Source: Lentimicrobiaceae bacterium (GTDB lineage: Bacteria; Bacteroidota; Bacteroidia; Bacteroidales; JAGONC01). Taken from it: DNA of 64,000 nt. The notes under the pieces were generated by a model that ran no database searches, was not told the DNA's origin, and saw nothing but the letters and a program-made list of their open reading frames with translations. The stretch is from contig JAGONC010000014.1 in NCBI GenBank assembly GCA_017993235.1, positions 7,149 to 71,148 of the forward strand, read 5' to 3'. A program made the position numbers and the translations under genes. Positions 1,289 through 15,039 of this stretch are shown piece by piece (position 1 is the first letter of the stretch; each line of letters starts with the position of its first letter).

Positions 1289-1747
1289 CTAGTTAAATAT
1301 CCTCAGATACGTCCCATCATAGTATGTCAGGTACTGATAGAGCGGACAGGGGGAGGGACCTTCAAAGGGGGATCCGTCAACCATCAGATATCTTGACATG
1401 CAGCAGGAGTCGATGATGGTGATGCCGGAAGCCTCCACCACAAGTGCAGCACATCGGGTGATATCTCCACCCAGGCAACAGTCGTATGGATCATAGGGGC
1501 ACGTACGTTCAAAGGCGATGAATTCTTCGGTAAACGGTCGGTACACGATCAATCCCCTGCTTGGCTGGCTAGCCGACACATAAACATATCCTCCTATGGG
1601 AATATTATCCAGGGTGTTGGGTAACAATGTAATGTTAATATAGGTATCCGGGAAGTCCTGGCAGGGCTTCTCCTTATCGCAGGATAGCCCCTGAGCAAAC
1701 AGGATCAGTAAAAACAGGGCGATGATGGCTTCTGGTTTTCTGTACAT
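1289..1747 (-). CDS. Cys-rich lipoprotein with a degenerate Rieske-like C-terminal domain (hypothetical)
   Basis: Signal peptide with lipobox (LFAQGLSC). The C-terminal segment AFERTCPYD...DSCCMSRYLMVDGSPFEGPSPCPLYQY resembles the Rieske pattern CxH...CxxH...DG...GPa..pL..Y, but both His ligands are replaced. Confidence 0.5.
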   Translation of the reverse strand: MYRKPEAIIALFLLILFAQGLSCDKEKPCQDFPDTYINITLLPNTLDNIPIGGYVYVSASQPSRGLIVYRPFTEEFIAFERTCPYDPYDCCLGGDITRCAALVVEASGITIIDSCCMSRYLMVDGSPFEGPSPCPLYQYLTYYDGTYLRIFN

Positions 1748-1855: not shown

Positions 1856-2203
1856 ATGTTACTGAACATAAACCTGAAGATAACGGTTGGCAGGATTATA
1901 CCCTGGGTATTGTTCCTCCTGTTGTTTTCAGGCTGTCAGGTAATGCAATCCTGGAGAATTGAGCGAATCAACCGGATACCGGAGAAGAATGCCATCAGGG
2001 AAGAAAAGCTCGCTGAAAAAGAGATCATCATGCAGCAAAAACAATTCGATAAAGATTATCAGTATGCCCTGAAATCGCACAAAAAAAAACAATCCGATGC
2101 AACCCTGGCACATATGAAATACCTGAAAAAACGCTCAGCCTATGTCAACCGGCATAGAAAAAGATCATTTTGCGACCGCCTGTTCAATCCATCATGCAGA
2201 TGA
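1856..2203 (+). CDS. Small basic lipoprotein (hypothetical)
   Basis: ATG start, hydrophobic N-terminus ending in lipobox LFSGC, Lys/Arg-rich remainder. No recognisable domain. Confidence 0.4.
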   Translation: MLLNINLKITVGRIIPWVLFLLLFSGCQVMQSWRIERINRIPEKNAIREEKLAEKEIIMQQKQFDKDYQYALKSHKKKQSDATLAHMKYLKKRSAYVNRHRKRSFCDRLFNPSCR

Positions 2204-2320: not shown

Positions 2321-2785
2321 ATGGAAGATTGGATCTATATTTTGCTGGGCATCGTCTGGATTGTCTATGCAGCATACAGAAGCAACCAGAAACAGAAAAA
2401 AAAGGTAACGGCTCCCCCACAGCATGCGTCTCCGCCACAACCCGCTGCTGATCATCAACCTTCGACCCTGGAGACTGTTTTTCAGGAGATCCTGGGAGAG
2501 AGTGCTTCGCTGGAAACAACATACCCGGTTGAGGCTGAATCCTATGATGAAAGAACCATTCAGGAATTGGAACTGGAGAAGAGGCTTTACAACAAACAGG
2601 AGATCCCGCTGGAAACCATTCCCACAGAGGAGGGGATTAGTGCCTTCAGGTATGACGGGGACAAAACGACGGTCTTTCTTTCCGGCGGAGATGAAGAAGA
2701 CACCGCTGTTTCTAAGGAATTTCTTCCCTTTGACCTAAGGAAAGCCATCCTGTATTCGGAGATCATGAACAGGCCCTATCGCTAA
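2321..2785 (+). CDS. Membrane-anchored acidic protein (hypothetical)
   Basis: The track ORF starts at TTG 2291. An in-frame ATG at 2321 gives MEDWIYILLGIVWIVYAAY (one TM helix), then KQKKK and a Pro/Glu-rich tail. No recognisable domain. Confidence 0.4.
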   Translation: MEDWIYILLGIVWIVYAAYRSNQKQKKKVTAPPQHASPPQPAADHQPSTLETVFQEILGESASLETTYPVEAESYDERTIQELELEKRLYNKQEIPLETIPTEEGISAFRYDGDKTTVFLSGGDEEDTAVSKEFLPFDLRKAILYSEIMNRPYR

Positions 2786-2887
2786 ATTTGAGGGTAGTCG
2801 GATAAAAAATTTGGATGGAAAAATTTTTTATTACTAACTTTACCAACTTTTTGAATCGTTTGATTAGCTATAATAAAACTGTAAGGT

Positions 2888-5800
2888 ATGATGAGAAATT
2901 TACTGTTAAGTGTGGGGTTTTTCCTTGCTGCCAGCCTGGTGGTGTATTCCCAGTCGGGAACATTGAAAGGTCGGATCATTGATAAAGATTCGAAAGAACC
3001 AATACCGTTCTGCAACATTATCGTTGAAGTGACAGGGGCTCAGAAAGGAGGTGCCACATCGGACTTTGACGGGAATTATACGATCAAACCCATCAATCCG
3101 GGAACGTATGATGTAAAGGCTACATACGTTGGCTACAAACCCAAGATGGTTATCGGGGTGATCATCAGGGCCGATAAGATCACCTTCCTCGATATTGAAA
3201 TGGAAGCGACAACGGTAACCCTGGAAACATTTGAGGTTATTGACTATAAAGTTCCTCTTATCAGCAAGGACCAGACCTCATCGGGGGGTACGGTGACGGC
3301 CGAAGAAATCTCCAAAATGCCGAACAAATCAGCTGCTGCAGTAGCGACCACCGTGGGAGGCGTTTACTCGGCAGATGGTGAAGTGGGAAGTATCCGGGGA
3401 CAGCGCTCCGAAAATACCATTTACTATATTGATGGTATTCGTGTCACAGGGTCCACTGCCCTTCCTGAATCAGCCATCGACCAGGTTTCGGTCGTATTGG
3501 GTGGAATTCCCGCACAGTACGGAGATGCCACGGGGGGTATCATCAACGTCACCACAAAAGGACCTTCCCGTAAATTCGGAATGGGCATTGAAGCTCAGAC
3601 CTCACAGTACCTTGATCCCTATGGTTACAACCGGGTTGGGGTGAACCTTAACGGGCCCCTGATCAAAAGTAAGGACCCCAGCAAGAATGTTTCCCTTCTC
3701 GGCTACTTCATCGCCGGTGAATTCATTTATAACCAGGATGGAAGACCTTCAGCCACTGACCTGTACAAGGTGAAGGATGATGTGCTGGCCTCGCTGGAGG
3801 AAACACCCCTCCGCCCGACTGGAACAGGCTCGGGAACCTATTACAACTCATACTTTCTGCGCATGAGCGACATGGAAAAAATCAATTCCTCCCTGAATTC
3901 CTCAAACTATCAGATCAATGTTTCCGGTAAGATCGACGTCCGTACTTCACCCACCGTCGACCTCTCCTTCGGAGGCAATTATTCAATGTATGATTCCGAT
4001 AATTACAACTTTTTCCACTCGCTGACCAATTACAACAACAACAGCCATTCCTATGGGAATACCTGGAGGGTGTTTGGTAAGTTCACCCAGCGGTTCCCGG
4101 CAGATAAAGACAGCAAATCGCTGATCAAAAATGTATTCTATACCATCCAGGCAGACTACACGAAGACGATGGATGTCGATGAAGATGCAAGACACCGCGA
4201 TGATCTGTTCAGCTATGGATATATCGGTAAGTTCACCACCTACAAAACCCGTAATTATACGTCAACGCAGGAATATGATCCTGTGGCAGGGCTCTATGGT
4301 TATCTGATGGATAACTGGCAGGATACACTGTATACCTATGAGCCGGGAACGGCAAACCCAATCCTGGCCAATTATACCAGCCAGTACTATGATATGCATC
4401 CCTATATTCCAAACCGGAACAGTGTCATCCTGAGCGAAGGAGGTATTTTGAACGGAAGAGGGCCCGAGGACATTTACAGCCTGTGGGCTAATCCCGGTGC
4501 ACTCCAGAGTGGGTATGGTAAGAGCGATTCGGAACAAATCGGTATCGACCTGATGGCATCGGCAGATATCGGCAACCATGCCATACAGTTCGGACTTCAA
4601 TACCAGCAAAGGGCATACAACGGGTATAATGTCGATCCTACCCAGTTCTGGTCAAAGATGGTTCAGACCACTAACTGGCACATCCGCGAACTTGACCTGT
4701 TGAATCCCCAGCCGGTGTTCATTGACGGCATCTTTCAGGATACCATCAATTACTACAGGAAATATGATGCGAATTCCCAGTTCTATTTCGACAAGCAACT
4801 CCGGCAGGCGATGGGACTTGCGATGGATGGACTGGACTGGATCGATGTCGAATCTTATGATGTTAATACCCATACGCTCTATTATTTTGACAAGGATGGC
4901 GTGCAACGCCAGGCCGTTCTCGAAGACGGACTGAATATCAACATGTTCAGTCCTGATGAACTGCTCAATGAAGGAGACCAGATCGTGGGATATTACGGCT
5001 ATGATGCTTATGGTAATAAATTGAAGGACAAACCCACTTTTGAGGATTTTTTCACCCAGAAAGATGAAAACGGTAATTATACCCGTGCGATCGCTGCCTA
5101 TGAACCCATCTATATGGCCGGATATATTCAGGATGTTTTCGCTTTCAGGGATCTGATCTTCAACGTTGGATTGCGCGTCGACCGGTTTGATGCCAACCAG
5201 AAAGTTTTAAAGGACAAGTATGTGCTTTATCCTGCCAAAACCGTCAAGGAAGTGAGTGACTTTGGCAGTCATCCTTCCAACATGGGACCGGATTATGTAG
5301 TGTATGTGGACAATGTCACCAACCCCACCAAAATCATGGGATACCGTGACGAAGGAGTATGGTACAATGCAAAAGGAGTTGAAGTGGTTGACCCTGAAGC
5401 TGAACTGAATGCAGGCAATGGGGTTTCACCTTACCTTGTAGATCCCAATAATCGTACGATACAGGCTGAAGCCTTTGAGGATTATGAACCTGCCCTGAAT
5501 TTTATGCCCAGGATCGCCTTCTCCTTCCCCATATCCGATGAGGCCTTATTCTATGCCCATTACGACATTTTAACACAGCGGCCCACCAGTAACTTCTTCT
5601 CATCGCCTACGGATTACTATTTCTGGGAGGTGAGGGGGAATCCTACCATTAACAATCCCGACCTGCGTCCGGAAAAGACGATCGATTACGAACTTGGTTT
5701 CCAGCAAAAACTGGGACCTACCTCCTCCCTGAACCTATCAGCCTTTTACAGGGAAGTCAGGGATAAGATCCAGAGCTACCGTTTTACAGGAGCCTATCCG

Positions 5801-6580
5801 ACAACCTATTATTCGTATAACAACATTGACTTTGGAACCATCAAGGGTTTGACGGTAACCTATGACCTGCGGCGTACGAATAACGCGAGAGTCCGTGCCA
5901 GTTATACCCTGCAGTTTGCCGACGGAACCGGCAGCAATCCCGAGACTGCCCAGGCTTTCATCCGTTCGGGGCAGCCAAACCTGCGTACGCTGAATCCCCT
6001 GGATATTGACCAGCGACACCGTATCAACCTTTCCTTCGACTACCGCTGGGGTGAAGGTGCGGAATATAATGGTCCGGTAACGCGCAAACAGGCAAAAGAC
6101 TCCGACAATGTAAGAAACATCAAATGGCTGGAAAACACGGGGATCAACATTACCCTGTTTGGTGGATCCGGAACACCGTATACCCGTTCTTCCGAGATCT
6201 ATCCCGCTCTTATCCAGAATAACCTGGTTATCCAGGGTTCGCTTAACGGATCCCGCCTGCCGTGGTCGTTCAGAATGGATGCCAGGGTTGACCGCGATAT
6301 CCGTATCGGTGTCGGAAAGGGGGAAAACCACAGGAATACCTATATGAACGTGTATTTGCAGGTACTGAATGTTCTCAATGCCAATAATATCCTTAACGTT
6401 TATCCTGCCACCGGTAATCCGGATGACGATGGCTACCTTGCTGCCGATGAATGGCAAACTCAGATCAATCAACAACTTAACCCGGAATCCTACCGCGAAC
6501 TGTATGAACTGGCACTCGACCGTCCAGGAAATTACAGTTCACCGAGAAAAATCCGGATTGGATTGATTTATAATTTCTAA
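2888..6580 (+). CDS. TonB-dependent-receptor-like outer-membrane barrel with N-terminal CarboxypepD_reg-like domain (1230 aa)
   Basis: Signal peptide. A CarboxypepD_reg-like beta-sandwich (GTLKGRIIDKDSKEPIPFCNIIV...GNYTIKPINPGTYDVKATYVGYK). Plug-like segment (IRGQRSENTIYYIDGIRV...IPAQYGDATGGIINVTTK). Long barrel ending in the OMP signature ...RIGLIYNF. No SusD-like gene follows. Confidence 0.85.
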   Translation: MMRNLLLSVGFFLAASLVVYSQSGTLKGRIIDKDSKEPIPFCNIIVEVTGAQKGGATSDFDGNYTIKPINPGTYDVKATYVGYKPKMVIGVIIRADKITFLDIEMEATTVTLETFEVIDYKVPLISKDQTSSGGTVTAEEISKMPNKSAAAVATTVGGVYSADGEVGSIRGQRSENTIYYIDGIRVTGSTALPESAIDQVSVVLGGIPAQYGDATGGIINVTTKGPSRKFGMGIEAQTSQYLDPYGYNRVGVNLNGPLIKSKDPSKNVSLLGYFIAGEFIYNQDGRPSATDLYKVKDDVLASLEETPLRPTGTGSGTYYNSYFLRMSDMEKINSSLNSSNYQINVSGKIDVRTSPTVDLSFGGNYSMYDSDNYNFFHSLTNYNNNSHSYGNTWRVFGKFTQRFPADKDSKSLIKNVFYTIQADYTKTMDVDEDARHRDDLFSYGYIGKFTTYKTRNYTSTQEYDPVAGLYGYLMDNWQDTLYTYEPGTANPILANYTSQYYDMHPYIPNRNSVILSEGGILNGRGPEDIYSLWANPGALQSGYGKSDSEQIGIDLMASADIGNHAIQFGLQYQQRAYNGYNVDPTQFWSKMVQTTNWHIRELDLLNPQPVFIDGIFQDTINYYRKYDANSQFYFDKQLRQAMGLAMDGLDWIDVESYDVNTHTLYYFDKDGVQRQAVLEDGLNINMFSPDELLNEGDQIVGYYGYDAYGNKLKDKPTFEDFFTQKDENGNYTRAIAAYEPIYMAGYIQDVFAFRDLIFNVGLRVDRFDANQKVLKDKYVLYPAKTVKEVSDFGSHPSNMGPDYVVYVDNVTNPTKIMGYRDEGVWYNAKGVEVVDPEAELNAGNGVSPYLVDPNNRTIQAEAFEDYEPALNFMPRIAFSFPISDEALFYAHYDILTQRPTSNFFSSPTDYYFWEVRGNPTINNPDLRPEKTIDYELGFQQKLGPTSSLNLSAFYREVRDKIQSYRFTGAYPTTYYSYNNIDFGTIKGLTVTYDLRRTNNARVRASYTLQFADGTGSNPETAQAFIRSGQPNLRTLNPLDIDQRHRINLSFDYRWGEGAEYNGPVTRKQAKDSDNVRNIKWLENTGINITLFGGSGTPYTRSSEIYPALIQNNLVIQGSLNGSRLPWSFRMDARVDRDIRIGVGKGENHRNTYMNVYLQVLNVLNANNILNVYPATGNPDDDGYLAADEWQTQINQQLNPESYRELYELALDRPGNYSSPRKIRIGLIYNF

Positions 6581-6617
6581 TGCTTACACTTTACGAAAAT
6601 CAATAATTCGCAGTAAT

Positions 6618-9600
6618 ATGAAAAATAGATTCCGATATGGTTTGATTGCGCTGATTGGTCTTTTCCTTCTTACCGAATACAGTTATGCAGATAAAGTACC
6701 GGTTCCGGAAGGCTCAAAAAAAGCAGCCCAGTTAAAATCGACGGCAGCAGGGTGCTTACCGGGAGCTGGATTTAAATATTTGGATATCAATAATGTCCGG
6801 ACCAGGATCAATACAGGGGGGGATATGTGGTGGAACTTTGAGGATGCCGATTATGAGATCCCCAAAAAATCAGGGAAAATGTCGATGTTCTCTGCTTCGT
6901 TATGGATCGGTGGCATTGACGTGAACGACCAGCTCAAGCTGGCTGCCATCCGGTACCGGCAGGGGCCTGATTTCGGTGGAGGAAACGATTACTGGCCTGG
7001 TCCCCTCACGGTGGATGGCACGGCTTCCATTACCGAAGATATCTGCTCACAATGGGACAAGCTGTTTCCCATTACCCGGGCTGAGGTCGACCAGTACCTT
7101 GCGTGGTGGGACGCGAAAAGCGATTTTCCTGAATATACGATCCCCACATCGATCATCGACTGGCCCGCTCATGGTGATGTATCCAAAAACCAGAGTTATT
7201 ACCTGGCTCCCTTCTATGATCGCGATGGCGACGGGAACTATGATCCCTATCAGGGCGACTATCCCTACTACGATGTCTCCAATGTACTCTGCAAGAGCGA
7301 TTTACCTCCTATGGAAGGGATTGGTATCCTGGCCGACCAGGTCATCAAGGGCGACCAAACTCTCTGGTGGGTCTTTAACGACAAGGGAAATATCCACACG
7401 GAAACCGAGGGAGATCCTATCGGAATGGAAATACGGGGCCAGGCATTTGGTTTCACGACAAACGATGAAATCAATAACATGACCTTTTACAGTTATGAAA
7501 TCATCAACCGGTCTACTTTCGTTCTGCGTGACACCTATTTCAGTCAGTGGGTTGATACGGACCTGGGCTATGCACAGGACGATTACGTAGGGTGCGATGT
7601 GGACAGGGGTCTTGGATATTGCTATAATGGTACTGCAGTGGACGGCTCAGGGCAGGCATGGGCGTATGGAAGCCAACCACCTGCCATCGGAGTCGACTTT
7701 TTCCAGGGTCCGTATATGGATCCTGACGGTAAGGACAATCCAGCCTTTGAAGGGAATTGCTCACTGGTGACCAGCCCTGATACCCTCGACCAGATGGCCA
7801 TCAATGGAGTGAACTTCGGTGACGGTATCGTGGATAACGAACGGTTCGGGATGCGCCGGTTTGTCTATCATAATAACTCGGGTGTTGCGGAATATATGAC
7901 CGACCCGGATTATGCCCCGGAATACTATAACTTCCTCCGGGGTATATGGAAAGATGGAACGAAAATGATGTATGGTGGAAATGCGCATATATCATCAGGG
8001 GCGTATGGTCCCGAGTGTGACTTCATGTTCCCGGGAGATTCCGATCCCTGCTTCTGGGGTACAAAAGGCAATCCGCCCAATGGAGATATTTACTGGACCG
8101 AAGTCACGGCCGGGAATAATCCCCACGACCGGAGGTTCATGCAATCGGCCGGACCGTTCCTTCTGGAACCGGGTGCCGTTAACTATATCACCGTGGGAAT
8201 TCCTTGGGCCAAAGCCTCTTCAGGCGGCGCCTGGGCCTCTGTGGAATTGTTGCGCGTGACCGATGACAAATGCCAGGCATTGTTTGATAACTGCTTCCAG
8301 GTAGTCAACGGACCCAATGCACCGGATCTGACCATCCGGGAACTTGACCAGACCTTGATCTTCTATATCACCAACCGTAAAACCAACGATGCCGGGAACA
8401 ATTTCAATGAAAGCTATGAGGAGATCGATCCGAACATCAAGAGCCCGGATGAACTTACAGGAAACAACCGCTTTGACTCCACCTACAACTTCGAGGGTTA
8501 CCAGGTATACCAGCTGGCAAACTCCAGTGTGTCGGTAGCCGACATCAAAAATCCCGACCTCGCACGGCAGGTATTCCAGTGCGACGTTAAAAACGGTGTG
8601 GGGCAACTCGTTAATTATTATTTTGATCAGGCACTGGGAGGAAATGTCCCTGTTGAAGAGGTCAATGGATCAGATGCAGGAATCAACCATACCTTCGTCC
8701 TTACAATTGATGCATTCTCCCAAGAACGCTTTGTGAACCATAAACAGTACTATTTCCTTGCACTGGCCTATGGATTCAACCAATTCATGATCTACAGCCA
8801 GGATCCGGGCGCCCAGGAGCAATACATTATGGGATTGGATGGACAGAAAGAACCGTACCTGGCAGGCCGTAAGAATATCAAAGTGTACACGGGCATCCCC
8901 CATAAAACCGTGGGGACGATATCAGCACAGGCAGATTTCGGAGCCATCCCGAGTATTACCCGTCTTTCCGGCCAGGGTAACGGAGCAAACAACCTGGAAC
9001 TGACCCAGGAAAGCATTGATAAAATTCTGGCCCAACCGCCGGTAAACTGGGCAGACTCAACCGGTGGCAATATTTATGGAACCCCTACGTATCCGATCAA
9101 TTACCAACCGGAATACAAGGCCAATGCAGGACCGATCCAGGTCAGGATCATCGATCCGCTGAATGTCAAAACAGGAACATACCGGGTGGAATTTGATTCA
9201 CTTTACCGGATGAAGATCCAAAATGTTACCAAGGATCCTAACACCATCGGGGATACAGCCTCCAAAATGGTTGCAAAATGGCGCCTGATCGATGAGGTGA
9301 CCCTCAAAACCTATGTAGCAGATACCAACATATCCTATAATAACGAACAACTCTTCCTTGACCTTGGATTTTCCATCCTTGTCTACCAGTCCTATTTACC
9401 CGGAACCTTCAAAGTAGGGATCGACGGAGACCAAAATGATGTTTATGCCGTACTACAGACAAACAGTGGACTTCTGGGAGGCACCATGGTGTTTGCCGAC
9501 AGCACCAGGAGATGGCTCAGCGGACTGCCCGATGATGATAATCCCTGGGCACAGAACTGGATCCGTTCCGGCGAATTCACTGATCCGGACAATCCTGCCT

Positions 9601-10928
9601 ACAACGACTGGAATATGTACATTGGAACAGATGGCACACCCGAAGGAAGGTCCTTTGACCCGGATGCCAGCTATGAAACCGTTCTGGACGGCACATGGGC
9701 ACCTTACAGCCTGTGTGCATCCAGCGTACAAAATATTGCCGGACCCGCTTTTGGAGGCGGAAAAGTGGCCAATCAGTCGAAAATCACCATGAATCTATCC
9801 GACATAGCCAGCGTGGATATCGTCGTTACATCCGATAAATCGAAATGGACCCGTTGCCCGGTGATTGAAATGTGCCATGATCCCAAACTGGCCGAAGGAA
9901 GGGTGGCACAGTTCGATGTCCGAGCCGGTCGTTCAGTGGATAAGGATGGCAATCCCACCCCGGCGGGTGTGACGGAAGCCAGTGAAAATCCCGAGGATCC
10001 GAACTACATCAACGCCACCGGAATGGGATGGTTTCCGGGTTATGCCATCAATATAGAAACCGGTGAACGGTTGAACATGGCCTTCAGCGAAGATTCCTGG
10101 CTGGTGAATGAAAATGGCCGGGATATGCTGTGGAATCCCACCTCAACCATGTGGGATTTTACCGATCCCATGAATACCCGACCGATCTTCGGCGGAAAAC
10201 ATTATGTATACGTATTCAGCCATCTTTACAACCGCTACAATGAAAGTGGCACCTATTTACATATCTTCGATATGCCGGCCTATGATGCTGGGAAAAGGCT
10301 CAGGGAAGGCATCCAGGATGATTATCTGCAGATCGGGAAAGCCATCTTTTACTCCTGCTGCATGTGGGTGAACATTCCCCTGGCTGTCCCGGGAGAAGAA
10401 TGGTTATCCAATGATGTCCAGATTAAGCTGCGCATCACAAAACCCTACGGCAGGTATTACTCAACCCCGCTGACGGATACAGTCTATTATCCCGATTCAT
10501 CCTATTTTGTGCTGAGCGATGAGCTTAAATTCAATAATTTTTATCCGGCTTACCGCTTCAGTACCGAAGGACTTGAAACGCTGACCAATGATGTGGAAAA
10601 AGCCAAGACCGACCTGGATCTCATTAACATTGTGCCGAATCCGTACTATGGTTATTCCCCCTACGAAACCAATCAGCTTGACAATCGGGTGAAAATCACT
10701 AACCTGCCACAACGCTGCACGGTTTCTATTTACACCATGAGCGGCACCCTGATCCGGCAATTTACCAAGGATGACTCCAAGACATCCATCGACTGGAACC
10801 TGCAAAATTATGCGGGAATCCCGGTAGCCAGCGGAATCTACCTGATCCATGTCAAAGCCGATGGCATCGGTGAAAGAACGCTCAAATGGTTCGGATCCCT
10901 GCGGCCTGTTGACCTGAATGCATTCTGA
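6618..10928 (+). CDS. Very large secreted protein (1436 aa) with a T9SS type-A C-terminal sorting domain; function unknown
   Basis: Signal peptide (LIALIGLFLLTEYSYA). The last ~105 aa match the T9SS CTD pattern (IVPNPYY...VKITNLP..CTVSIYTMSGTLIRQF...ASGIYLIHVKADG..RTLKWFG). A Ca-binding-like DRDGDGNYDPYQGD is present. I see no HExxH, GDSGG or other catalytic motif. Confidence 0.8.
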   Translation: MKNRFRYGLIALIGLFLLTEYSYADKVPVPEGSKKAAQLKSTAAGCLPGAGFKYLDINNVRTRINTGGDMWWNFEDADYEIPKKSGKMSMFSASLWIGGIDVNDQLKLAAIRYRQGPDFGGGNDYWPGPLTVDGTASITEDICSQWDKLFPITRAEVDQYLAWWDAKSDFPEYTIPTSIIDWPAHGDVSKNQSYYLAPFYDRDGDGNYDPYQGDYPYYDVSNVLCKSDLPPMEGIGILADQVIKGDQTLWWVFNDKGNIHTETEGDPIGMEIRGQAFGFTTNDEINNMTFYSYEIINRSTFVLRDTYFSQWVDTDLGYAQDDYVGCDVDRGLGYCYNGTAVDGSGQAWAYGSQPPAIGVDFFQGPYMDPDGKDNPAFEGNCSLVTSPDTLDQMAINGVNFGDGIVDNERFGMRRFVYHNNSGVAEYMTDPDYAPEYYNFLRGIWKDGTKMMYGGNAHISSGAYGPECDFMFPGDSDPCFWGTKGNPPNGDIYWTEVTAGNNPHDRRFMQSAGPFLLEPGAVNYITVGIPWAKASSGGAWASVELLRVTDDKCQALFDNCFQVVNGPNAPDLTIRELDQTLIFYITNRKTNDAGNNFNESYEEIDPNIKSPDELTGNNRFDSTYNFEGYQVYQLANSSVSVADIKNPDLARQVFQCDVKNGVGQLVNYYFDQALGGNVPVEEVNGSDAGINHTFVLTIDAFSQERFVNHKQYYFLALAYGFNQFMIYSQDPGAQEQYIMGLDGQKEPYLAGRKNIKVYTGIPHKTVGTISAQADFGAIPSITRLSGQGNGANNLELTQESIDKILAQPPVNWADSTGGNIYGTPTYPINYQPEYKANAGPIQVRIIDPLNVKTGTYRVEFDSLYRMKIQNVTKDPNTIGDTASKMVAKWRLIDEVTLKTYVADTNISYNNEQLFLDLGFSILVYQSYLPGTFKVGIDGDQNDVYAVLQTNSGLLGGTMVFADSTRRWLSGLPDDDNPWAQNWIRSGEFTDPDNPAYNDWNMYIGTDGTPEGRSFDPDASYETVLDGTWAPYSLCASSVQNIAGPAFGGGKVANQSKITMNLSDIASVDIVVTSDKSKWTRCPVIEMCHDPKLAEGRVAQFDVRAGRSVDKDGNPTPAGVTEASENPEDPNYINATGMGWFPGYAINIETGERLNMAFSEDSWLVNENGRDMLWNPTSTMWDFTDPMNTRPIFGGKHYVYVFSHLYNRYNESGTYLHIFDMPAYDAGKRLREGIQDDYLQIGKAIFYSCCMWVNIPLAVPGEEWLSNDVQIKLRITKPYGRYYSTPLTDTVYYPDSSYFVLSDELKFNNFYPAYRFSTEGLETLTNDVEKAKTDLDLINIVPNPYYGYSPYETNQLDNRVKITNLPQRCTVSIYTMSGTLIRQFTKDDSKTSIDWNLQNYAGIPVASGIYLIHVKADGIGERTLKWFGSLRPVDLNAF

Positions 10929-10982
10929 TACTCTGTACCGATAAATGAAACATAAAGAATATAACCTGTAAATCAATCAAAT

Positions 10983-12041
10983 ATGAAACAGATGCTAAGA
11001 TATATCCCTGTGGTTTTATTCACATGGTTGATGATTGCACCTGCAATGACAACACTGGGCGGAAACAAAGACAGGTCGGGGGAAGCAGGAGCTTCTGAAT
11101 TGCTGATCAATCCATGGGCACGAAGTTCCGGATGGGGAGGCGTCAATACAGCAAACATCAAAGGAGTGGAAAGCATGTTCTCCAACATTGCCGGTACCGC
11201 CTTCATTAACCGGACCGACATTACCTTTGGCCATACTACATGGTTAAAGGGATCGGACATCAACATCTTCTCGTTTGGATTGGTTCAAAAAATAGGTCAG
11301 TCCGGTGCACTTGGAATCGGCGTCATGTCGATGTCCTTTGGAGATATTCCCATCACCACAGTCGATCTGCCTGAAGGTGGAATAGGTACCTTCTCCCCCA
11401 GCCTGCTGAATTTTGCACTGTCTTACTCCAGGATGTTCTCCAATAGCATTTACGGTGGTCTGCAGGTGAAACTGGTGTCGGAAAGCATTTCCGATATTTC
11501 AGCGGTGGGCTTTGCGATCGATGCGGGTATTCAATACGTTACAGGGGAAACAGATAATATTCATTTCGGCATCACCCTCAGAAACTGGGGTCCCACGATG
11601 CGTTTCTCCGGTGACGGCCTCGCAATCCGTACGCTTCTGCCCGGTCAGGAAAGCCAGTTTACTGTGGAACAACGAGCTGCTGCCTACCAGCTGCCATCCC
11701 AATTGAACATCGGAGCCGCCTACGATATCAACTTTAAAGGGGATTACCGCCTGACGTTCGCTGCAAATTTTGTGTCGAACGCCTTTGCCAAAGATCAGAT
11801 TACCGGCGGACTGGAATTCTCGCTGAAGGATTATCTGGTGTTACGCGGGGGATATACCTACGAAAACGGGATCACGGAGGATGCTGACCGTACAACGGTA
11901 TTCACAGGTCCCAGCGCAGGCTTTTCTGTACAGATCCCCCTCAAAAAGGAATCAAGCTCAAAATTCTACGTGGATTATTCATATACGGACACCGATCCAT
12001 TTGACGGGGTTCACAGGATTGGTGCTGGCATAAGCTTTTAA
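10983..12041 (+). CDS. PorV/PorQ-family outer-membrane beta-barrel protein
   Basis: Signal peptide. N-terminal GASELLINPWARSSGWGGVNTANIKGVESMFSNIAGTAF fits the PorV/PorQ signature (..fL.i...aRs.gmGg..va...d....f.NPAg.a). Alternating beta-strand pattern, terminal ...GAGISF. Confidence 0.6.
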   Translation: MKQMLRYIPVVLFTWLMIAPAMTTLGGNKDRSGEAGASELLINPWARSSGWGGVNTANIKGVESMFSNIAGTAFINRTDITFGHTTWLKGSDINIFSFGLVQKIGQSGALGIGVMSMSFGDIPITTVDLPEGGIGTFSPSLLNFALSYSRMFSNSIYGGLQVKLVSESISDISAVGFAIDAGIQYVTGETDNIHFGITLRNWGPTMRFSGDGLAIRTLLPGQESQFTVEQRAAAYQLPSQLNIGAAYDINFKGDYRLTFAANFVSNAFAKDQITGGLEFSLKDYLVLRGGYTYENGITEDADRTTVFTGPSAGFSVQIPLKKESSSKFYVDYSYTDTDPFDGVHRIGAGISF

Positions 12042-12223: not shown

Positions 12224-12697
12224 ATGAAGTCGGTAAAATATTACACCCGGGAAGGGCTGGCAAAGCTGAAAGATGAGCTGGACCGGCTGACCTCGGTCGA
12301 GCGCCCTGCTATCTCCCGCCAGATTGCAGAAGCACGGGATAAGGGTGACCTTTCGGAAAATGCAGAATACGACGCTGCCAAAGATGCCCAGGGAATGCTT
12401 GAGATGAAAATATCCAAATTGCAGGAAGAGATCCAGAATGCCCGGATATTGGATGAATCAAAGCTTGACCACTCAAAGGTATTGCTTTTATCCACGGTGA
12501 AGATCAAAAACCTCAGGAACGATGCAGTCATGACCTATACGCTGGTTCCGGAAAAGGAGGCAAACCCGAAGACAGGTAAGATATCCGTGAGCTCACCCAT
12601 CGCAAAAGGTTTGCTGGGTAAATCCGTGGGCGAGATCGTTGAAATCGTTGTACCGGCTGGTACATTACCCTATCAGATCATTGAAATATCAAGATAA
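12224..12697 (+). CDS. greA: Transcription elongation factor GreA
   Basis: 157 aa. The coiled-coil N-terminal domain with DLSENAEYDAAKD and the C-terminal FKBP-like domain are typical of GreA. Confidence 0.92.
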   Translation: MKSVKYYTREGLAKLKDELDRLTSVERPAISRQIAEARDKGDLSENAEYDAAKDAQGMLEMKISKLQEEIQNARILDESKLDHSKVLLLSTVKIKNLRNDAVMTYTLVPEKEANPKTGKISVSSPIAKGLLGKSVGEIVEIVVPAGTLPYQIIEISR

Positions 12698-12726: not shown

Positions 12727-13128
12727 ATGAGTTCCATCTTTGCACGCATAGCCAGCGGAGAGATTCCCAGCTATAAGATCGCCGCGGATGACCGTTTTTT
12801 CGCTTTCCTTGATATCAATCCCCTAACAAAAGGTCACACGCTCGTCGTTCCTAAAAAAGAGATAGACTATATCTTTGCCATGGACGATGCATGGTACAGG
12901 GATTTTTTCAGCTTTGCCCGGAAAGTGGCCATCGCCATTGAAAAGGTCGTTGATTGCAAACGAATCGGCATTGCCGTTGTCGGACTTGAAGTGCCTCATG
13001 CCCACATCCATCTGGTTCCCATGAACGATATGGATGACCTCGATTTCAAAAGACCCAAACTGGTCTTCACTCCAGAGGAATTCGCCGAAATCGCACGACA
13101 AATCTCAGATCAAATATCTTCAATCTGA
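12727..13128 (+). CDS. HIT-family (histidine triad) nucleotide hydrolase
   Basis: Histidine triad HAHIHLVP, GHTLVVPKK, 133 aa. Confidence 0.9.
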   Translation: MSSIFARIASGEIPSYKIAADDRFFAFLDINPLTKGHTLVVPKKEIDYIFAMDDAWYRDFFSFARKVAIAIEKVVDCKRIGIAVVGLEVPHAHIHLVPMNDMDDLDFKRPKLVFTPEEFAEIARQISDQISSI

Positions 13129-13140
13129 TATCAGATATCA
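13127..13140. repeat. Two tandem GATATCA heptamers between convergent HIT and purF
   Basis: ctGATATCAGATATCAg. The TGA stop of the + gene (13126-13128) and the TGA stop of the - gene (complement of 13138-13140) both lie in or against the repeat. Confidence 0.85.
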
Positions 13141-15039
13141 GTAGGGTCTTTCGCGGATTCCCTCGATATAATAGATGAACGCTTTATTGACGATTTTGTT
13201 CCCACCGGGAGTCGGATAATTGCCGGTGAAATACCAGTCACCCGTATGGTTGGGACAGGCCTGGTGCAAATCTTCGATGGTCTGGTAGATGATCCTGACT
13301 TCCGCCTGAAGAGCAGGTGTTATGAGAAGCTGAGATACTTTTTCTGAGATCTGTTCAGCGGTAAAGGGCCGGTAAATCTCTTTTACGACATTGACAACCT
13401 TTTCCTGGGGAAACTTCTCCTGCTCTTTTGCTTTTTTATAAACATGGTTGATCACACCGGACATGTTCTTATCCTTCAGCAGCTGGATTGCGGCCTGGAA
13501 TGCAATGAAATCATTGATCCTGGCCATGTCGATGCCGTAACAATCGGGATACCGTATCTGTGGGGCGGAGGAGGCTATAATGATCCTTTTGGGGCCCAGC
13601 CTGTCCAGTATGCGGATGATGCTCTGTCGCAGTGTGGTACCCCTGACGATGGAATCATCCACCACCACCAGGTTATCCAATCCCCTTCTTACCGTTCCAT
13701 ACGTGATATCATAGACATGGGTGACAAGGTCGTCGCGGTGGCTTTCCTGACTGATGAAGGTTCGTAGCTTGATATCCTTGACCGCTACTTTCTCAATCCG
13801 GGGTTTCAAAGTAAATAGCTTATCTAGCTTCTCACGGGTCAGGTTATTCCCCAGCTGCATGATCTGGTCTTTTATCTGGGAGTCGCAAAAAGCGTTTAAT
13901 TCCTCCATCAGACCCATGAACGCATCAATAGCTGTGTTGGGGATATAGGAAAAAACCGTGTTCTCAAGGTCATGGTCCACTGCTTTCAGGATCGCGGGAG
14001 CCAGCGCTTTGCCAAGTTTTTTCCTTTCCTGATAGATGTCAACGTCCGTACCCCTGGAAAAATAGATTCGCTCAAAGGAGCAGGCTTTTTTCGCCAGGGG
14101 TTCCATAAAGGGCACCTCATCTGCAGATCCATTGGCTTTAATGATCAGTGCATGTCCGGGTTGAAGCTCCCTGATCTGCTCCACCTGGACATTAAAGGCT
14201 GTTTGAATGACGGGTCTTTCCGAGGTGGCAACCACCACTTCATCGTCCCTGTAATAAAATGCCGGCCGTATCCCTGCAGGATCACGCACGACAAAGGCAT
14301 CTCCATGACCGAGCATTCCTCCGATCACATACCCGCCATCCCAGTGAGCGCAGGCATTGGCAAGGATCTTCTGCAAGTCGAGGTTTTCGGCTATTTTAAC
14401 GGTAATATCCTTTTTGAAATATCCCAGTTCCTTGAAATGCCGGTAGAGTTCCTCGTTGGCATCATCCAAAAAATGGCCGATATTTTCCAGGATCGTCACC
14501 GTATCGGATGTTTCAACGGGATATTGTCCATAGCCGACCAGTTTTTCAAAAAGGTCATCTACGTTGGTCAGGTTAAAATTTCCGGCGAGCACGAGATTGC
14601 GCGTCTTCCAGTTGTTATAGCGCTGCACGGGGTGAACATTGAGCAAGCCGTGCCTGCCAAAGGTTCCGTAGCGAAGATGACCGAGGTAAAGTTCCCCTGC
14701 AAAGTCAAAGTGATATTTCAGGAAATCGACATCCAGCAGTCGTTCCGGAGATCGTTCACTGAGTGCCTGGATTCTGTCGTACACCTCTGAGAATATGGTA
14801 TGCAGGGCTGTTTCCGAGTCGCTTCGGCTCCGGTCGATATAGTTATGCCCTGGTTCGAGGTTGAATTTCACGCAGGCGATGCCGGCTCCGTCCTGGCCTC
14901 GGTTATGTTGTTTTTCCATGAGCAGGTGCAGCTTGTTGAAGCCGTAGAACGCCGTACCGTAGTTGGCGATATAGTATTCGAGGGGTTTGAGCAGCCTGAT
15001 GAGTGCGATGCCGCATTCATGTTTGATGGATTCACTCAT
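13138..15039 (-). CDS. purF: Amidophosphoribosyltransferase (long Bacteroidota-type PurF)
   Basis: N-terminal ...KHECGIA (class-II Ntn amidotransferase Cys). PRTase motif VVVDDSIVRGTT. 633 aa. Confidence 0.9.
   Translation of the reverse strand: MSESIKHECGIALIRLLKPLEYYIANYGTAFYGFNKLHLLMEKQHNRGQDGAGIACVKFNLEPGHNYIDRSRSDSETALHTIFSEVYDRIQALSERSPERLLDVDFLKYHFDFAGELYLGHLRYGTFGRHGLLNVHPVQRYNNWKTRNLVLAGNFNLTNVDDLFEKLVGYGQYPVETSDTVTILENIGHFLDDANEELYRHFKELGYFKKDITVKIAENLDLQKILANACAHWDGGYVIGGMLGHGDAFVVRDPAGIRPAFYYRDDEVVVATSERPVIQTAFNVQVEQIRELQPGHALIIKANGSADEVPFMEPLAKKACSFERIYFSRGTDVDIYQERKKLGKALAPAILKAVDHDLENTVFSYIPNTAIDAFMGLMEELNAFCDSQIKDQIMQLGNNLTREKLDKLFTLKPRIEKVAVKDIKLRTFISQESHRDDLVTHVYDITYGTVRRGLDNLVVVDDSIVRGTTLRQSIIRILDRLGPKRIIIASSAPQIRYPDCYGIDMARINDFIAFQAAIQLLKDKNMSGVINHVYKKAKEQEKFPQEKVVNVVKEIYRPFTAEQISEKVSQLLITPALQAEVRIIYQTIEDLHQACPNHTGDWYFTGNYPTPGGNKIVNKAFIYYIEGIRERPY

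Follow-up and report, generated by a model that had tools for sequence, protein, structure and literature searches.

The 64,000-nt window analyzed here (positions 7,149 to 71,148 of contig JAGONC010000014.1, assembly GCA_017993235.1, from a Lentimicrobiaceae bacterium; coordinates below are those of the window) carries a tightly packed outer membrane operon of three genes, which we refer to as the triad. Its first gene, g1, encodes a protein resembling TonB-dependent transporters, its second, g2, a large secreted protein ending in a type IX secretion system (T9SS) sorting domain, and its third, g3, a β-barrel of the PorV/PorQ family. Hundreds of Bacteroidota, most of them uncultured, have kept the triad, and this conservation is deep, vertical and tied to a single locus. 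Each of the components is of a known kind, but the combination is absent from the literature that we searched. We tentatively propose, as a reading that we favor and would not yet call probable, that the triad is a self-contained capture-and-import unit of the outer membrane in which g2 is exported by the T9SS, held at the surface by g3 and feeds its ligand to g1.

The operon and its conservation

A preliminary description of this DNA, made from the sequence alone, had reported three co-directional genes with gaps of 37 nt (g1-g2) and 54 nt (g2-g3), and the coordinates of our open reading frames (ORFs) agree with it exactly. The features of the operon, including those parts of its products that are discussed below, are as follows:

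2783..2790, + strand: Bacteroidota -7-like box TAAATTTG, ~100 nt 5' of the g1 start codon (weak evidence)
2888..6580, + strand: g1, TonB-dependent-transporter-like outer membrane protein, 1230 aa (Pfam, orthologue alignment)
3221..3262, + strand: TonB-box-like strand LETFEVIDYKVPLI, g1 residues 112-125, between the N-terminal extension (NTE) and the plug
6618..10928, + strand: g2, secreted protein with a Sec signal peptide, a β-sandwich-rich body and a T9SS C-terminal domain (CTD), 1436 aa
7338..8312, + strand: most conserved core of g2, residues 241-565, 69-78% mean identity to the window copy (77 orthologues)
10608..10925, + strand: T9SS sorting domain of g2, PorZ/PorU type, residues 1331-1436 (TIGR04183, PorZ model)
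10983..12041, + strand: g3, PorV/PorQ-family (FadL-like) outer membrane barrel, 352 aa (NF033709)

A terminator scan, which like the accompanying sigma-70 promoter scan performed at chance level, gave no + strand terminator-like site within the triad. The -7-like box upstream of g1 is the sole + strand match to that motif among the intergenic sequences around the operon, the gaps g1-g2, g2-g3 and g3-greA having none, and the window-wide count of the motif is not above chance. That the triad is not a chance arrangement is evident from other genomes: in 76-80 of 83 independent loci its genes stand in this order and are spaced as closely.

How widespread is the family? A word-indexed search with g2 returned more than 7000 matches, and the best 120 of these, which we characterized, are all full length, 54-92% identical, derived from metagenome-assembled genomes (MAGs) of Bacteroidales or Lentimicrobiaceae, and carry generic names. 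An exhaustive HMMER search with residues 1-1200 of g2, leaving out the CTD, retrieved 7386 cluster representatives (clustering at 50% identity) with a threshold of E<=1e-3; with E<=1e-30 the number is 2223. When one genome of each GTDB species was scanned, the family was present in at least 586 genomes, and the 80 loci kept from that scan are all from Bacteroidota (Bacteroidales, Lentimicrobiaceae, Flavobacteriales and one Chitinophaga-labeled MAG). Searches seeded with marine Flavobacteriales and rumen orthologues produced no characterized member of the family; the matches were MAG proteins labeled as hypothetical or as having a T9SS sorting domain, and they came from uncultured lineages, some of them on contigs of 1.3-2.8 Mb.

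When synteny was scored by tblastn over 83 fetched loci, g2 had g1 on its upstream side in 79 of them and g3 on its downstream side in 80, followed by greA (75/83) and a gene of the HIT family (73/83). The order g1-g2-g3-greA-HIT is maintained down to 40% identity of g2, with median gaps, in 77 loci, of 26 nt (g1-g2), 34 nt (g2-g3) and 103 nt (g3-greA); an exception is locus L013, where greA and the HIT-family gene flank the best g2 match. The preliminary description had proposed synteny across Bacteroidota and the wider FCB group as a check on its idea, and the first part of this was borne out; all the loci seen were Bacteroidota, so the wider group is not represented. Compared with the window copy, g1 has a median identity of 51%, g2 of 49%, g3 of 53% and GreA of 68%. 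The divergence of the three triad proteins is parallel (Spearman 0.83-0.95, with the highest value, 0.95, between g1 and g2) and also tracks that of GreA (0.76), from which we conclude that the triad has been inherited vertically as one block.

The three proteins of the triad

The layout given for g1 in the preliminary description, a CarboxypepD_reg domain, a plug and a barrel, is correct, as all three Pfam matches are above cut-off (CarboxypepD_reg at residues 25-105, E 1e-13; Plug at 128-218, E 1.3e-7; TonB_dep_Rec_b-barrel at 586-1069, E 5.9e-11). A signal peptide (residues 1-22) precedes the CarboxypepD_reg NTE (25-115), the plug (128-218) and the barrel, which ends in a C-terminal Phe, and the NTE finds a match in the one solved for a TonB-dependent receptor of Bacteroides (6ytc_A, E 7e-6). 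The TonB-box-like strand between NTE and plug follows the pattern x-V-E-V-V-D-Y-K-V-P-L-I, which is retained in g1 orthologues of 35-88% identity. Similarly, 77 g1 orthologues share the canonical plug motifs IRG, YIDG and GGIINV, and the barrel also has long conserved segments. Hence g1 has the plug, the barrel and the conserved TonB-box-like strand N-terminal to the plug by which TonB-dependent transporters are recognized, and from its sequence it looks like a functional, energized transporter of a non-SusC subfamily. No SusC/RagA model, the signature of which we take to be TIGR04056, was among the NCBIfam matches to g1 at E<=0.01, and g1 is somewhat longer than a typical SusC, by ~150-200 residues. 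The statement that g1 has no SusD partner was upheld as well: there is no SusD Pfam domain in g2 or in the neighboring genes of the window and of loci L001-L003.

The g2 protein has a Sec signal peptide (residues 1-24) with no lipobox and, as had been noted previously, a T9SS CTD. The latter scores 25.9 bits against TIGR04183 (type A, cut-off 23), and this combination of a Sec signal with a CTD above cut-off is that of a T9SS type A cargo. On the Pfam model PF18962 the CTD of the window copy reaches 17.9 bits against a cut-off of 27, and members of the family reach E 2e-12. Its alignment shows the motifs PNPY, IY..G.L.R and G.Y.IHV along with a conserved RPxDLNxF extension, and in 77 orthologues the domain is gap-free and 64% identical, versus a mean identity of 52% to the window copy for the whole protein. 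A PDB search with the profile of the whole g2 family returned a single structure, the CTD of PorZ (5m11, residues 666-745, E 0.0034). With a profile of the CTD, PorZ (E 0.009) and PorU (6za2, E 0.024) were matched, the other matches being FlgD Ig-like domains and two unrelated weak ones, with no further T9SS CTD. Of the T9SS substrates, PorZ and PorU are the two known to have uncleaved CTDs, by which they are held on PorQ and PorV, respectively (PMC10947112), and it has been proposed in a review that cognate PorV-like barrels shield such CTDs from cleavage (PMC10202324). We considered whether g2 might itself be a PorZ and rejected this, since it scores 36.2 bits on NF052228 against a cut-off of 260 and its CTD alone aligns.

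For g3 the assignment to the PorV/PorQ kind was also well founded. It scores 148.5 bits on NF033709 (PorV/PorQ family, cut-off 90) over residues 37-352, and although the single sequence gave nothing useful in the PDB, the family profile matched the PorV of Flavobacterium johnsoniae (6h3i_F, E 3e-16) and had no other noteworthy match. FadL/OmpP1 is excluded, there being no Pfam match to Toluene_X/FadL and only an E value of 0.28 for TodX with the family profile. Three closer candidates were rejected: PorQ proper (NF033711, 73.5 bits vs 220, with only residues 42-205 aligned), PorV proper (NF033710, 64.3 bits vs 250, with the upstream gene, g2, lacking a peptidase domain and so not being of PorU type) and PorV2 (NF052325, 48.6 bits vs 325). 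On these scores g3 is a member of the PorV/PorQ family that is an orthologue of none of PorV, PorQ and PorV2. Taken together, the marginal matches of the g2 CTD, the solid match of g3 to PorV and the unusually high conservation of the CTD support the view that g2 and g3 form a putative cargo-anchor pair which is like PorZ-PorQ and not orthologous to it.

In ten loci from rumen and gut Bacteroidales (L048, L052, L054, L059, L063, L064, L068, L070, L073 and L081) g2 is 1540-1650 aa, or 100-200 residues longer, and in some of these g3 is also longer by ~40 residues (393-398 aa). This joint lengthening in gut lineages may reflect co-adaptation of cargo and anchor.

What is the body of g2? Its core, residues 241-565, has many invariant D, N, G, W and Y residues, whereas the middle and pre-CTD regions are only 22-47% identical in the 77 orthologues. 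Just N-terminal to the core, within a nearly invariant motif at residues 199-219 (FYDRDGDGNYDPYQGDYPYYD), there is a likeness to a DxDxDG calcium-binding loop (DGDGNYDP, residues 203-210). The preliminary description could recognize no catalytic motif in g2, and neither could we by hidden Markov models (HMMs) or by two rounds of AlphaFold and Foldseek: 20 members spanning 37-65% identity have no Pfam domain outside the CTD and no NCBIfam catalytic domain, and g2 as a single sequence gave nothing useful against the PDB. The structure models were made of the body without the CTD. The first (63 close homologues) had a pLDDT of 70 and was uninformative in Foldseek; the second (51 sequences from three clades) had a pLDDT of 80.3 and a pTM of 0.62, and was predicted to be nearly all β-strand, of β-sandwich type, with too few helices for an (α/α)6 barrel. 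Foldseek matches of the second model to the PDB were weak (E 6e-4 to 1e-1 over ~330-350 aligned columns, TM 0.13-0.2) and were to glycoside hydrolase (GH) family 94 phosphorylases, a GH15-like dextran dextrinase, GH116, GH63 and heparinase II, enzymes that share a non-catalytic N-terminal β-super-sandwich; PorZ (5m11) was not among the matches listed. Against a viral library only fibronectin type III (FN3) likeness was seen, the best match being an FN3-rich phage protein. The modeled body thus fits a role in binding better than one in catalysis, and for binding of glycans or other carbohydrates in particular the model gives only a hint.

Proposed capture and import, and other readings

What might such an operon do? 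If the triad is the capture-and-import unit that we propose, g2 would be synthesized with its Sec signal peptide and then pass through the T9SS translocon by means of its CTD, and g3 would take it up there and, by binding it, retain it on the cell surface through an uncleaved CTD, as PorQ does with PorZ and PorV with PorU. The anchored g2, pictured as non-catalytic, β-sandwich-rich and probably glycan-binding, would lie beside or over g1 and couple to it by passing on its ligand, which g1, with its NTE, TonB box, plug and barrel, would move inward with TonB energy. In this manner g2 and g3 would stand in for the lipoprotein lid of SusD type that ordinary transporters of Bacteroidota have, and the ligand could be either a nutrient or, along the lines of a proposal made for PorF (see below), a glycan that the cell needs for its surface. 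That the three proteins act as one surface machine is something we infer from their synteny and from the analogy with PorQ-PorZ.

Parts of this scheme have precedents. The attachment complex of the Porphyromonas gingivalis T9SS, with its pairs PorQ-PorZ and PorV-PorU, likewise uses a PorV-family barrel and one substrate with a retained CTD as an anchor (PMC10947112, PMC10202324), but g3 is orthologous to neither PorQ nor PorV, the body of g2 has neither a PorZ match nor a peptidase domain of the PorU kind and, in a further difference from PorQ-PorZ, the g2 and g3 genes are adjacent and joined to that of a TonB-type transporter. SusC/SusD-type and BtuB-BtuG-type systems share with the triad the NTE, TonB box, plug and barrel, as well as a surface partner encoded directly downstream in the operon. 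However, unlike SusC/SusD, the triad has a transporter with no SusC/RagA model match, and the partner of this transporter is a T9SS substrate of 1436 aa, furnished with a barrel anchor of its own, rather than a lipoprotein of SusD fold. The locus of the triad also occurs in single copy and is conserved vertically, in contrast to a variable polysaccharide utilization locus. PorF of P. gingivalis (PG0534/PGN_1437), for which import of a glycan is proposed, can be likened to g1 by description only, as a plug-and-barrel protein tied to the T9SS, although at 92.3 kDa it is far smaller and it is not reported beside a gene for a CTD protein and a PorQ-like gene. In the β-barrel assembly machinery of Bacteroidota, BamG, a FadL/PorV-like 14-strand barrel, holds the large surface protein BamH by its extracellular loops (PMC12578637), much as g3 may hold g2, but BamH is a lipoprotein rather than a T9SS substrate and BamG-BamH docks on BamA instead of on a TonB-dependent transporter. 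Lastly, SprB-SprF and PG1035-PorP resemble g2-g3 in that the gene for a cognate barrel lies beside that of the cargo, which is anchored by a type B CTD; the g2 CTD, by contrast, passes the type A model TIGR04183, and g3 matches PorP_SprF weakly (26.7 bits with Pfam; 20.4 vs 90.55 with TIGR03519) and the PorV/PorQ family strongly. The preliminary description could map the triad to no described system, which is true of the triad as a whole, but it had missed the precedents of PorQ-PorZ and PorF. Its interpretation of the genes as a surface unit is nevertheless supported, because none of the three outcomes that it had named as fatal came about: g3 does not score as FadL, synteny is not lost in related genomes and no known enzyme domain was found in g2 by HMMs or from its structure models.

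Several observations weigh against capture and import. The g2 CTD resembles those of PorZ and PorU only at marginal E values (0.003-0.02), glycan binding by g2 is only a hint because its Foldseek likeness is so weak (E ~6e-4, TM 0.13-0.2), and there is no regulator or riboswitch (the latter sought with Rfam in the window and four loci) that hints at a substrate. A few genomes have lone g2 paralogues without g1 or g3 (L050, L066 and L067, the first from the same MAG as L049), and the neighbors of these are mutually unrelated (an M13 peptidase, a hybrid sensor kinase and a DUF5916/CBM9 protein) and give no functional clue. Additionally, the triad is inherited vertically in single copy beside housekeeping genes and has been retained in marine Flavobacteriales on contigs of 1.3-1.8 Mb, a pattern that resembles envelope maintenance more than a typical nutrient locus.

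This last point leads to an alternative in which the triad is a late-stage T9SS or surface-attachment module like that of PorF, PorZ and PorQ, with g2 on g3 binding a glycolipid or glycan of the cell's own surface and a PorF-like g1 moving glycan for the attachment of cargo, so that the operon would serve envelope biogenesis and not nutrition. P. gingivalis does have a TonB-receptor-like outer membrane protein of the T9SS, PorF/PG0534 (PMC5445135), the mutant of which groups phenotypically with porQ and porZ mutants, and import of a glycan for A-LPS has been proposed (PMC12704123). The PorZ-like CTD of g2, the higher score of g3 on the PorQ than on the PorV model and the housekeeping-like vertical conservation beside greA would all be in keeping with such a module. 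We nonetheless think it unlikely, as the scores are far under the orthologue cut-offs (73.5 vs 220 for g3 on PorQ; 36 vs 260, by the CTD alone, for g2 on PorZ), the CTD-less model of g2 did not have PorZ among its listed matches, a g1 of 1230 aa is far larger than the 92.3-kDa PorF and model T9SS organisms function without a described triad of this kind.

Could g2 instead be a surface-coat, adhesin or S-layer-like protein seated on g3, with g1 an independent transporter that is merely co-transcribed? Large CTD-bearing surface-layer proteins of the T9SS do occur in Tannerella, g2 is large and rich in β-sandwich and FN3-like structure, down to its FN3-rich best match in the viral library, and the lone paralogues lack g1. 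Yet g1 and g2 are adjacent (median 26 nt) in essentially every locus and co-vary with a rho of 0.95, and a core that is 69-78% identical across orders is unlike the fast-evolving coats and adhesins, which makes this an improbable explanation. Least credible, and in our estimation very improbable indeed, is an ordinary polysaccharide or protein utilization locus in which g2 is a T9SS-secreted enzyme with a catalytic domain too divergent to be recognized. T9SS-secreted enzymes are found in utilization loci of Bacteroidota, the weak Foldseek matches of g2 are all to carbohydrate-active enzymes and the window also encodes a GH20, a GH2 and an α-galactosidase. However, what g2 matches in those enzymes is their N-terminal, non-catalytic sandwich, an (α/α)6 barrel would need more helices than the model has and 20 diverse members of the family have no catalytic domain in Pfam or NCBIfam. 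Moreover, the conserved block includes no SusD gene, regulator or other carbohydrate-active enzyme, and utilization loci are usually variable rather than single-copy and fixed beside greA.

Neighboring genes and the wider significance of the triad

The inventory of three genes in the preliminary description was confirmed for the triad itself, but it omitted a candidate fourth gene upstream, g0, and the invariant greA-HIT neighbors downstream:

2321..2785, + strand: g0, candidate fourth gene, 154-aa bitopic membrane protein (orthologue HMM)
12224-12697, + strand: greA, downstream neighbor of the triad
12727-13128, + strand: HIT-family gene, downstream neighbor of the triad

The g0 product has an acidic N-terminal tip, one transmembrane helix, a Lys-rich stop-transfer segment that predicts an N-out, C-in orientation, an acidic and Pro-rich linker and a conserved C-terminal motif, FDLRKAILYSEIMNRPY, with the pattern FDLRKA(I/V)IYSEI(L/M)NRPY. 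An HMM built from its orthologues was run on 84 sources and found it ending ~100 nt 5' of g1 in 44 of them; neither Pfam nor NCBIfam has a match for it. The ORF listing starts g0 at a TTG at 2291, while the ATG at 2321 agrees with the N-termini of the orthologues. With its tail predicted to be cytoplasmic, a TonB-like role for g0 is unlikely.

The greA and HIT-family genes stand beside the triad in at least three orders, and such a stable linkage to housekeeping genes is unusual for an outer membrane operon. They are probably not functional parts of the triad; read-through into them is possible, since the 182-nt gap between g3 and greA has no + strand -7-like box. Upstream and divergent, at 1289-1747 (- strand), is a Cys-rich lipoprotein with the motif ERTCP..P..C that is conserved upstream in 29 loci, often beside adenosylhomocysteinase, and it is adjoined by a small Lys-rich lipoprotein at 1856-2203 (+ strand); neither lipoprotein has a family match. 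Beyond the HIT-family gene, at 13138-15039 (- strand), is a 633-aa PurF-like amidotransferase (130.6 bits vs the purF cut-off of 350), and in locus L003 there is an ORF of equal length at the position of this gene. The rest of the window (15156-63897) encodes a C69 dipeptidase, an M14-like peptidase, a GH20, a GH2 β-galactosidase, a retaining α-galactosidase, a glucosamine-6-phosphate deaminase-like protein, pyruvate formate-lyase, an MMPL/RND-type transporter and translation GTPases, a content that points to an anaerobic member of the Bacteroidales which degrades glycans and peptides. No other T9SS component was found among 20 larger ORFs of the window scanned with Pfam (ten) or NCBIfam (the ten others).

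Does the triad represent a class of machine that has gone unrecognized, in which a TonB-energized transporter has an extracellular partner that is not a lipoprotein and the T9SS is coupled, both physically and in function, to TonB transport? We are doubtful that so broad a claim will hold. If the triad is a distinct class, it would be an ancient one that has passed down vertically in three or more orders of Bacteroidia, with a core function, be it the uptake of an essential nutrient or of an envelope glycan, in lineages most of which are uncultured.

One reason for pursuing the capture-and-import proposal is what would follow from it. If it is true, the triad would provide a third way of placing the partner of a transporter on the cell surface, by T9SS export and a private anchor of PorQ type, and a single operon would join two systems on which the outer membrane biology of Bacteroidota is centered, the TonB-dependent transporters with their lipoprotein lids and the T9SS with its PorV-family shuttles. 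It would also mean that paralogues of the PorV family have roles beyond the secretion apparatus. The role of PorF becomes testable by comparison with the triad operon. Lastly, the g2 family comprises thousands of clusters with no Pfam domain but the CTD and no characterized member, and because it is found in rumen, gut, sediment and marine lineages, any function assigned to it would annotate a great many genomes.

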